A stretch of 64,000 bases of DNA from Candidatus Gastranaerophilales bacterium (GTDB lineage: Bacteria; Cyanobacteriota; Vampirovibrionia; Gastranaerophilales; Gastranaerophilaceae), in assembly GCA_928722015.1 (NCBI GenBank), contig CAKMWI010000008.1:212837-276836 (forward strand). The letters run 5' to 3'. The notes beneath the pieces are model-generated. The model saw only the letters and a list, made by a program, of their open reading frames with translations. It made no database searches and was not told where the DNA came from. Positions 10,421 through 11,358 of this stretch are shown here, piece by piece. The translations under genes and the position numbers were made by a program. Each line of letters starts with the position of its first letter. Within the stretch, counting starts at the first letter, position 1.

Positions 10421-11358
10421 ATGGAGGATATTGTGAGCGTAATTTTAGATACTATCGACAATTATAAAGTTAATTTTAATGATTCAGATAATACTGACGA
10501 TGAAATTAAAACCTTTAGTGCTATTGCGCATGAAGATGATATATTGCAAGTATATTTGAAAGAAATAGGACGAATTAAATTACTAAAGGGGAATGAAGAA
10601 AAACAACTAGGAAAACTTATTAAGGAAAATAAGGATGAAATTGCAAAGAGAAAACTTATTCAAGCAAATCTGAGACTTGTTGTGAGTATTGCGAAAAAGT
10701 ATGTCGGACAAGGTGTTTTATTTATGGATTTAGTTCAAGAAGGTTCGATTGGTTTAATTAAGGCTGCAGAAAAATTTGATTATTCAAAGAATTTCAAGTT
10801 TTCTACTTATGCAACATGGTGGATTAAACAATCAATTATCAGGGCTATTGCAAATCATTCAAAGGCTATAAGAATACCTGTTCATATGGCTGATAAAATA
10901 AGAAAATATAAAGCCGCTTTTAGTGCATTATCATCTGAGTTTGGACGTGAACCTACTGAGCAAGAACTTGCAAATTATCTTGAGCTTTCTATTGCTAAGC
11001 TGAGAAAAATTAAGCATTCTATTATCCTTGAGCCGGTTAGTCTTGAGACTTCTGTTACTGATGATTTGTGTTTAGGAGATTATATTGAAGATAAATCTTG
11101 CAATTCACCGAGGAACAGGCAAAGGATGCATTTTTGAAAATGGGTATTCCTGAACTATTTGAGGTGTTAACTGATAGAGAAAAAACAGTTATTACATCAA
11201 GGTTTGGAATTAATTCAGAGGAACCTAAAACTTTAGCCGAGCTTGGTGTATGTTTGGGATACTCTAAAGAGCGTATTCGTCAAATTGAAGAAGGTGCATT
11301 GATTAAAATGCGTAAAAATAGAAAAGCTGCTCATTTAAAAGATTATATCGAAAATTAA
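10421..11358 (+). CDS. RNA polymerase sigma-70 family factor (group 1/2-like, short N-terminus), interrupted by an apparent 1-nt frameshift near 11108-11112
   Basis: Regions 1.2-3 lie in frame A (10421-11137: ...[35 protein letters not shown]...). Region 4 lies in frame B (11098-11358: ...[16 protein letters not shown]...LAELG...[18 protein letters not shown]). The expected junction ...[17 protein letters not shown] is restored by inserting one G in CACCGAGG. The true start may be the GTG at 10436, 4 nt after GGAGGA. Confidence 0.8.

Follow-up and report, generated by a model that had tools for sequence, protein, structure and literature searches.

A one-nucleotide deletion found only in the assemblies of one strain interrupts an RpoD/SigA-like sigma-70 gene of a Gastranaerophilaceae gut bacterium

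In the stretch of DNA analysed here (64,000 nucleotides, hereafter the window), two overlapping open reading frames carry between them the parts of a single sigma-70 family factor. Is this a gene broken by a real mutation, a gene read through a programmed frameshift, a pair of genuine half-genes, or an intact gene that was badly sequenced? The initial annotation had described a sigma-70 family gene split by a single-nucleotide frameshift, with regions 1.2 to 3 on one side and region 4 on the other. The Pfam matches of the two ORFs confirm it: the upstream ORF matches Sigma70_r1_2 (E = 3e-9), Sigma70_r2 (3e-23) and Sigma70_r3 (1e-11) while the downstream ORF matches Sigma70_r4 (2.5e-14), and all these matches exceed the gathering scores. 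The occurrence side by side of two ORFs with complementary sigma-70 domains is far beyond chance. The features of the locus are collected in Table 1.

The insertion of one G after position 11110 (i.e., CCG followed by GAG) joins the two frames into a protein of 312 aa in which the four sigma-70 domains stand in order. PF00140, PF04542, PF04539 and PF04545 are all over the gathering score in this repaired protein, the unrepaired ORFs sharing them 3 + 1. The frame change had been placed between regions 3 and 4; the position is right and can be refined, since the change falls just after the region 3.2 finger, in the linker between regions 3.2 and 4.1. The single G at 11110 stands for the GG of the intact alleles, and a CCGG site is destroyed by the deletion. 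The first in-frame ATG of the downstream ORF is found at 11140 and gives a form of 72 aa, which has been called on other contigs (P0136).

The start of the gene deserves a comment. The annotated ATG 10421 overlaps the GGAGG Shine-Dalgarno sequence of GTG 10433. The true start is probably GTG 10433, leading to a product of 308 aa instead of 312, because GGAGG is located 5 nt upstream of this codon and because the orthologues (305-308 aa, beginning with MSLNL... or MSVILD...) start at the GTG-equivalent position.

Table 1. Features of the interrupted sigma-70 locus (positions in the window).
Feature	Position	Strand	Description and basis
Sigma-70 family (RpoD/SigA-like) gene with 1-nt deletion	10421..11358	+	Repaired: 312 aa from ATG 10421 or 308 aa from GTG 10433
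Upstream ORF	10421..11137	+	238 aa, ending at TGA 11135-11137; regions 1.2, 2, 3 and 3.2 finger, then 9 out-of-frame codons (RNRQRMHF and stop); ORF list, Pfam
Downstream ORF	11098..11358	+	86 aa from TTG, -1 frame relative to the upstream ORF; region 4 (4.1-4.2 helix-turn-helix); ORF list, Pfam
Deletion site	11108..11113	+	CCG AGG in the window, CCG GAG G in intact alleles; DNA alignment, indel census
Shine-Dalgarno and GTG	10423..10435	+	GGAGG 10423-10427, 5-nt spacer, GTG 10433-10435; read from sequence
U5 run, premature stop and ATG	11129..11142	+	CAT TTT TGA AA ATG: U5 run into the premature stop, ATG two nt on; read from sequence
Predicted RNA hairpin within the region-4 coding sequence	11146..11210	+	90-nt fragment, -19.8 kcal/mol, z = -2.95

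The gene is an ordinary RpoD/SigA-like sigma-70 factor of a Gastranaerophilaceae (Melainabacteria) gut bacterium. The named homologues come from MAGs of Candidatus Gastranaerophilaceae, Melainabacteria or Cyanobacteriota, and the scan of the genome collection returned almost exclusively Gastranaerophilales MAGs, from animal and human guts. The G+C content of the window is 29-35%. Among the matches, the orthologue is single-copy and strongly conserved across Gastranaerophilales (54-84% identity). The scan finds one locus per related genome (it is blind to distant paralogues), and no second sigma-70 gene is located within the 64-kb window. NCBI names the orthologues merely «sigma-70 family RNA polymerase sigma factor». 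A search of the literature on Melainabacteria sigma factors and on run ERR8157883, from which a second assembly described below derives, gave nothing useful.

The comparison with SigA/RpoD (group 1) and RpoD-like group 2 factors leads to the following likenesses: (i) regions 1.2, 2, 3 and 4 are found in the canonical order; (ii) the top NCBIfam matches of the repaired protein are RpoD models; (iii) its top PDB matches are the SigA proteins 8x6f_E and 7ckq_F (368 and 371 aa, E = 2e-81), i.e., solved structures with which the alignment is gap-free from region 1.2 to the C-terminus, the repaired junction included. Besides the 1-nt deletion, two properties set the window gene apart. All the RpoD, SigA and cyanobacterial RpoD models score the repaired protein below their curated cut-offs, the equivalog cut-offs of NCBIfam being missed with 323 bits vs. 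572 (NF006666), 285 vs. 354 (TIGR02393) and 282 vs. 384.5 (TIGR02997). Moreover, region 1.1 is absent: of the 370 positions of the PRK09210 model, the match covers none before position 78, and no more than about 40 acidic residues stand ahead of region 1.2. That this gene encodes the «principal sigma factor» is thus not established, although its best scores are those of RpoD models.

The alleles of the same species indicate what is missing. The 11 conspecific contigs compared all carry CACCGGAGG (11/11) vs. CACCGAGG in the window. In the DNA alignment, the intact allele CACCGGAGG stands opposite CACC-GAGG in the window, i.e., exactly one base is missing. The repair by one G that had been proposed at about 11108-11112 turns out to be exact. 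The G-restored gene is identical over 939/939 nt to the alleles of three conspecific loci (L004, L007 and L011), and one or two differences, almost always synonymous, separate it from each of the remaining conspecific alleles. Its product is exactly P0122 (312 aa), a protein recorded on 44 contigs, for which the public collection has 74 indexed blocks; when the GTG is taken as start, the sequence becomes P0123 (308 aa), recorded on 31 contigs. With differences so rare and nearly always synonymous, the gene, which the other members of the species keep intact, is evolving there under purifying selection. Apart from the missing G, the window copy is undamaged and has no secondary decay.

The comparison was made over 61.2 kb of the window (420..61637) against 27 conspecific loci, with a depth of 8-12 assemblies. 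At an identity of 99.6-99.8%, 37 SNPs are private to the window (only one conspecific locus backs the last three), and the missing G is its sole private indel. The other indels are either A/T-run intergenic length polymorphisms common to several strains or private to other genomes. Since one private indel is found in 61.2 kb, the assembly of the window is accurate, and the hypothesis of a generally error-prone assembly was rejected. A systematic error linked to the CCGG motif was rejected too: 47 other CCGG sites were compared in the first 21 kb and none of them has an indel (0/47).

Truncated members of the protein cluster (P0128, P0130, P0131 and P0137) could have pointed to a recurrent breakage of the sigma gene in the species. 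Their source is two conspecific loci of long-read, hifiasm style (L014 and L015; ENA ERZ21564551 and ERZ21549426, contigs named s####.ctg######l), where essentially all genes are broken into small ORFs, the sigma gene included. The truncated members are thus uninformative on biology, and recurrent breakage was rejected.

Some strain-variable or neighbouring features were also observed. Directly upstream of the sigma locus, 5968..9780 (minus strand) encodes a 1270-aa Asn/Gly-rich repeat protein, which has no Pfam match at E <= 0.01 and whose full length is conserved throughout the conspecific loci; on visual inspection it resembles a beta-helical adhesin or a protein of the filamentous-haemagglutinin type. 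Between convergent genes, 5915..5945 forms a hairpin (AGTCCCTGT…ACAGGGACT) with paired compensating 1-nt loop indels in 4 of the 10 conspecifics; this hairpin, whose loop varies, probably acts as a bidirectional terminator. Beside a tRNA-Arg (60119-60192, minus strand), 59357..60107 is a strain-variable insertion of about 750 bp, which the window shares with one conspecific locus (L106) and which the other seven lack. It contains an ORF of 148 aa (59477..59923) with a signal-peptide-like N-terminus and no Pfam match. Finally, another conspecific locus (L100 1..2962, ENA ERZ16268099 scaffold_61) departs from the window to the left of position 23791, where it has instead genes encoding a DNA methylase, an EcoRII-C endonuclease domain and DUF2130; this replacement is a strain-specific restriction-modification insertion or rearrangement.

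The deletion is present in a second assembly. A Logan contig of run ERR8157883 carries it, with 0 mismatches to the window in 7.5 kb. It belongs to the same strain, but the length of one short A run (A5/A6, at 10115) is not that of the window, nor of any other sequence compared. Because of this difference, it is a separate assembly. A strain-private RecN allele (T-for-A amino-acid change, private SNP at window position 12546) is found only in the Logan contig and in the 320-kb source contig, and when this allele was used to look for the strain in another sample, only run ERR8157883 was returned. It is most likely that the two assemblies share their reads. The initial annotation had left the choice between a pseudogene and an assembly error at the GG dinucleotide. 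The second term has to be narrowed: an error made purely by an assembler is unlikely, since two different assemblies carry the deletion. Because their reads are probably the same, an error at the read level could still account for both, and it stands beside a real mutation as the other part of that choice to be retained.

The orthologues of other species were compared through the junction, as the initial annotation had advised. The 80 loci come from species-representative genomes and have 46-76% identity (76% for the best match of the collection scan, whose matches do not include the window's own species). The frame is single and uninterrupted from region 3 to region 4 in 79/80 of them, and the 80th ends at a contig edge. 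Neither the two-frame layout nor separate half-genes are conserved anywhere among these 80 loci. Halves conserved separately as split genes in relatives, which would have changed the picture, were thus looked for and not found, and a conserved split gene was rejected: the gene is in one piece in all the relatives compared (11 conspecific contigs and 79/80 related species).

The idea of a programmed frameshift, also put forward at the start, is abandoned on the same counts (single frame in the 11/11 conspecific contigs and in the 79/80 related species) and for want of a slippery motif. No X XXY YYZ heptamer is found at the frame change, where the site reads TCA CCG AGG and the tRNA-Pro is unable to re-pair on ACC. 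The locus resembles the genes with a programmed -1 frameshift (dnaX, IS3-family transposases) by its overlapping ORF pair and by a fusion that needs a -1 shift. It differs from them by the lack of a slippery heptamer and by a two-frame layout that is not conserved. In the same manner, it recalls SigO-RsoA (YvrI/YvrHa) of Bacillus subtilis, since the -10 and -35 recognition would be carried by separate polypeptides; but SigO-RsoA is a conserved gene pair whereas here the lesion is private and the gene is in one piece everywhere else.

Could the interrupted copy nevertheless be expressed in part? The stretch from the U5 run to ATG 11140 is the only site where a -1 slip in the P site, or termination followed by reinitiation, could bring a partial rescue. 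With a slip of the tRNA-Phe on the U5 run (CAU UUU UGA, 11129-11137), possibly aided by the predicted hairpin, a full-length sigma factor of 312 aa would be made in which EEQAKDA is swapped for RNRQRMH. The U5 run permits a perfect -1 re-pairing beside a slowly decoded stop codon, the predicted hairpin (z = -2.95) starts 8 nt after this stop and about 35 nt from the deletion site, and the canonical length is kept by any -1 shift inside 11098-11137. However, the U5 site departs from the canonical X XXY YYZ heptamer, the efficiency would probably reach a few percent at most, the replaced segment would turn the linker from acidic to basic, and no relative carries the frameshift. Moreover, an aligned stretch of 142 nt, containing the U5 run, the stop, the ATG and the hairpin up to window position 11180 only, is identical in an intact allele. 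As no frameshift is needed in that allele, the hairpin is not necessarily a sign of recoding; the U5 run, ATG 11140 and the hairpin appear coincidental rather than selected for recoding, and such a leaky rescue is extremely unlikely. Hardly any better can be said of a functional split sigma factor, in which region 4 would be made separately by termination-reinitiation at ATG 11140 and would associate in trans. Only 2 nt separate the stop from this ATG, the 72-aa product would hold the entire Pfam region-4 match, and a natural two-subunit sigma factor is known, reportedly from the work of MacLellan et al. in PNAS in 2009. Against this, none of the relatives encodes the halves separately, the split is confined to a single sample, and it severs the linker through the RNA exit channel by which region 4 is normally tethered. 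Furthermore, no Shine-Dalgarno sequence is usefully placed: the nearest AGGA is 14 nt 5' of ATG 11140 and the nearest GGAG is 19 nt 5' of TTG 11098.

The serious competitor of a real mutation is an error of the reads or of the consensus, i.e., the cells carry the intact CACCGGAGG and the G was lost in base calling or in a low-coverage consensus, then inherited by both assemblies. This is a substantial possibility, although not the one retained here. The deletion allele is known from one run and from the source contig only, and once the G is put back no nucleotide distinguishes the gene from intact conspecific alleles; in a gene so highly conserved and housekeeping-like, a real null allele is a priori unlikely. 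Some indel noise is hinted at by the A5 vs. A6 discrepancy in the Logan contig of the same run, and error-ridden long-read contigs of the species, which shred the sigma gene too, do exist in the databases. Nevertheless, the same call comes from two different assemblers, GG is no real homopolymer, a second private indel is absent from the 61.2 kb compared, so that the error rate of the window is low, and the indel-free state of the remaining CCGG sites compared excludes a systematic error linked to this motif. Seen as a class, the locus behaves like ordinary frameshift pseudogenes and like indel errors of MAGs, with a one-base indel in one assembly vs. intact and otherwise identical alleles; it departs from them solely in that the target gene is unusually well conserved.

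That one gene in about 57 should be broken is in line with the usual pseudogene load of bacterial genomes. For this reason, and because the indel error rate of the assembly is low, the best explanation is a real and recent 1-nt deletion, private to the strain, with a loss-of-function or hypomorphic effect (probability of about 0.55). It must be weighed against this that the lack of secondary decay agrees equally with an artefact and with a mutation of very recent date. That the G is missing from the cellular DNA, rather than from the reads alone, and that the cell is affected as described below, is what we infer from these comparisons.

According to this explanation, i.e., a real private deletion, one G of the GG dinucleotide would have been lost in the linker between regions 3.2 and 4, in one strain and one sample, and the lesion would be very recent, the gene being intact in the rest of the species. 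Translation would end nine codons past the deletion, leading to a fragment of 238 aa (or 234 aa) made of regions 1.2-3.2 followed by RNRQRMHF. This fragment would be devoid of region 4, i.e., of the part that recognises the -35 element and binds the beta-flap, and would be active at best at extended -10 promoters. Truncated fragments of E. coli sigma-70 lose -35 recognition and anchoring to the beta-flap, and can still initiate at extended -10 promoters. By analogy with these truncations, the deletion allele would be null or strongly hypomorphic if the deletion is real.

The outcome for the cell would depend on the other sigma factors of the strain. Should the strain have no other primary sigma factor, the fixation of a null allele would be very unlikely in a gene so conserved and SigA-like. 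It is also very improbable that the deletion is real in the sole housekeeping-type sigma factor of the strain and is tolerated there, whether through the use of extended -10 promoters, through a slip at the U5-UGA site or through reinitiation at ATG 11140.

The finding is of an ordinary kind and matters little in itself. For annotation, the gene of this assembly should be flagged as frameshifted or corrected to its product of 308/312 aa. It also illustrates that «frameshift» calls of a first pass can be quickly settled by the comparison of conspecific assemblies. For the biology of the organism, a modest interest would arise only with a genuine deletion in a genome devoid of other RpoD-like sigma factors, since the strain would then be a natural test of the dispensability of region 4. 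Should the gene be the sole primary sigma factor and the deletion real, the strain would provide a natural demonstration that a split or a truncation between regions 3.2 and 4 is tolerated.
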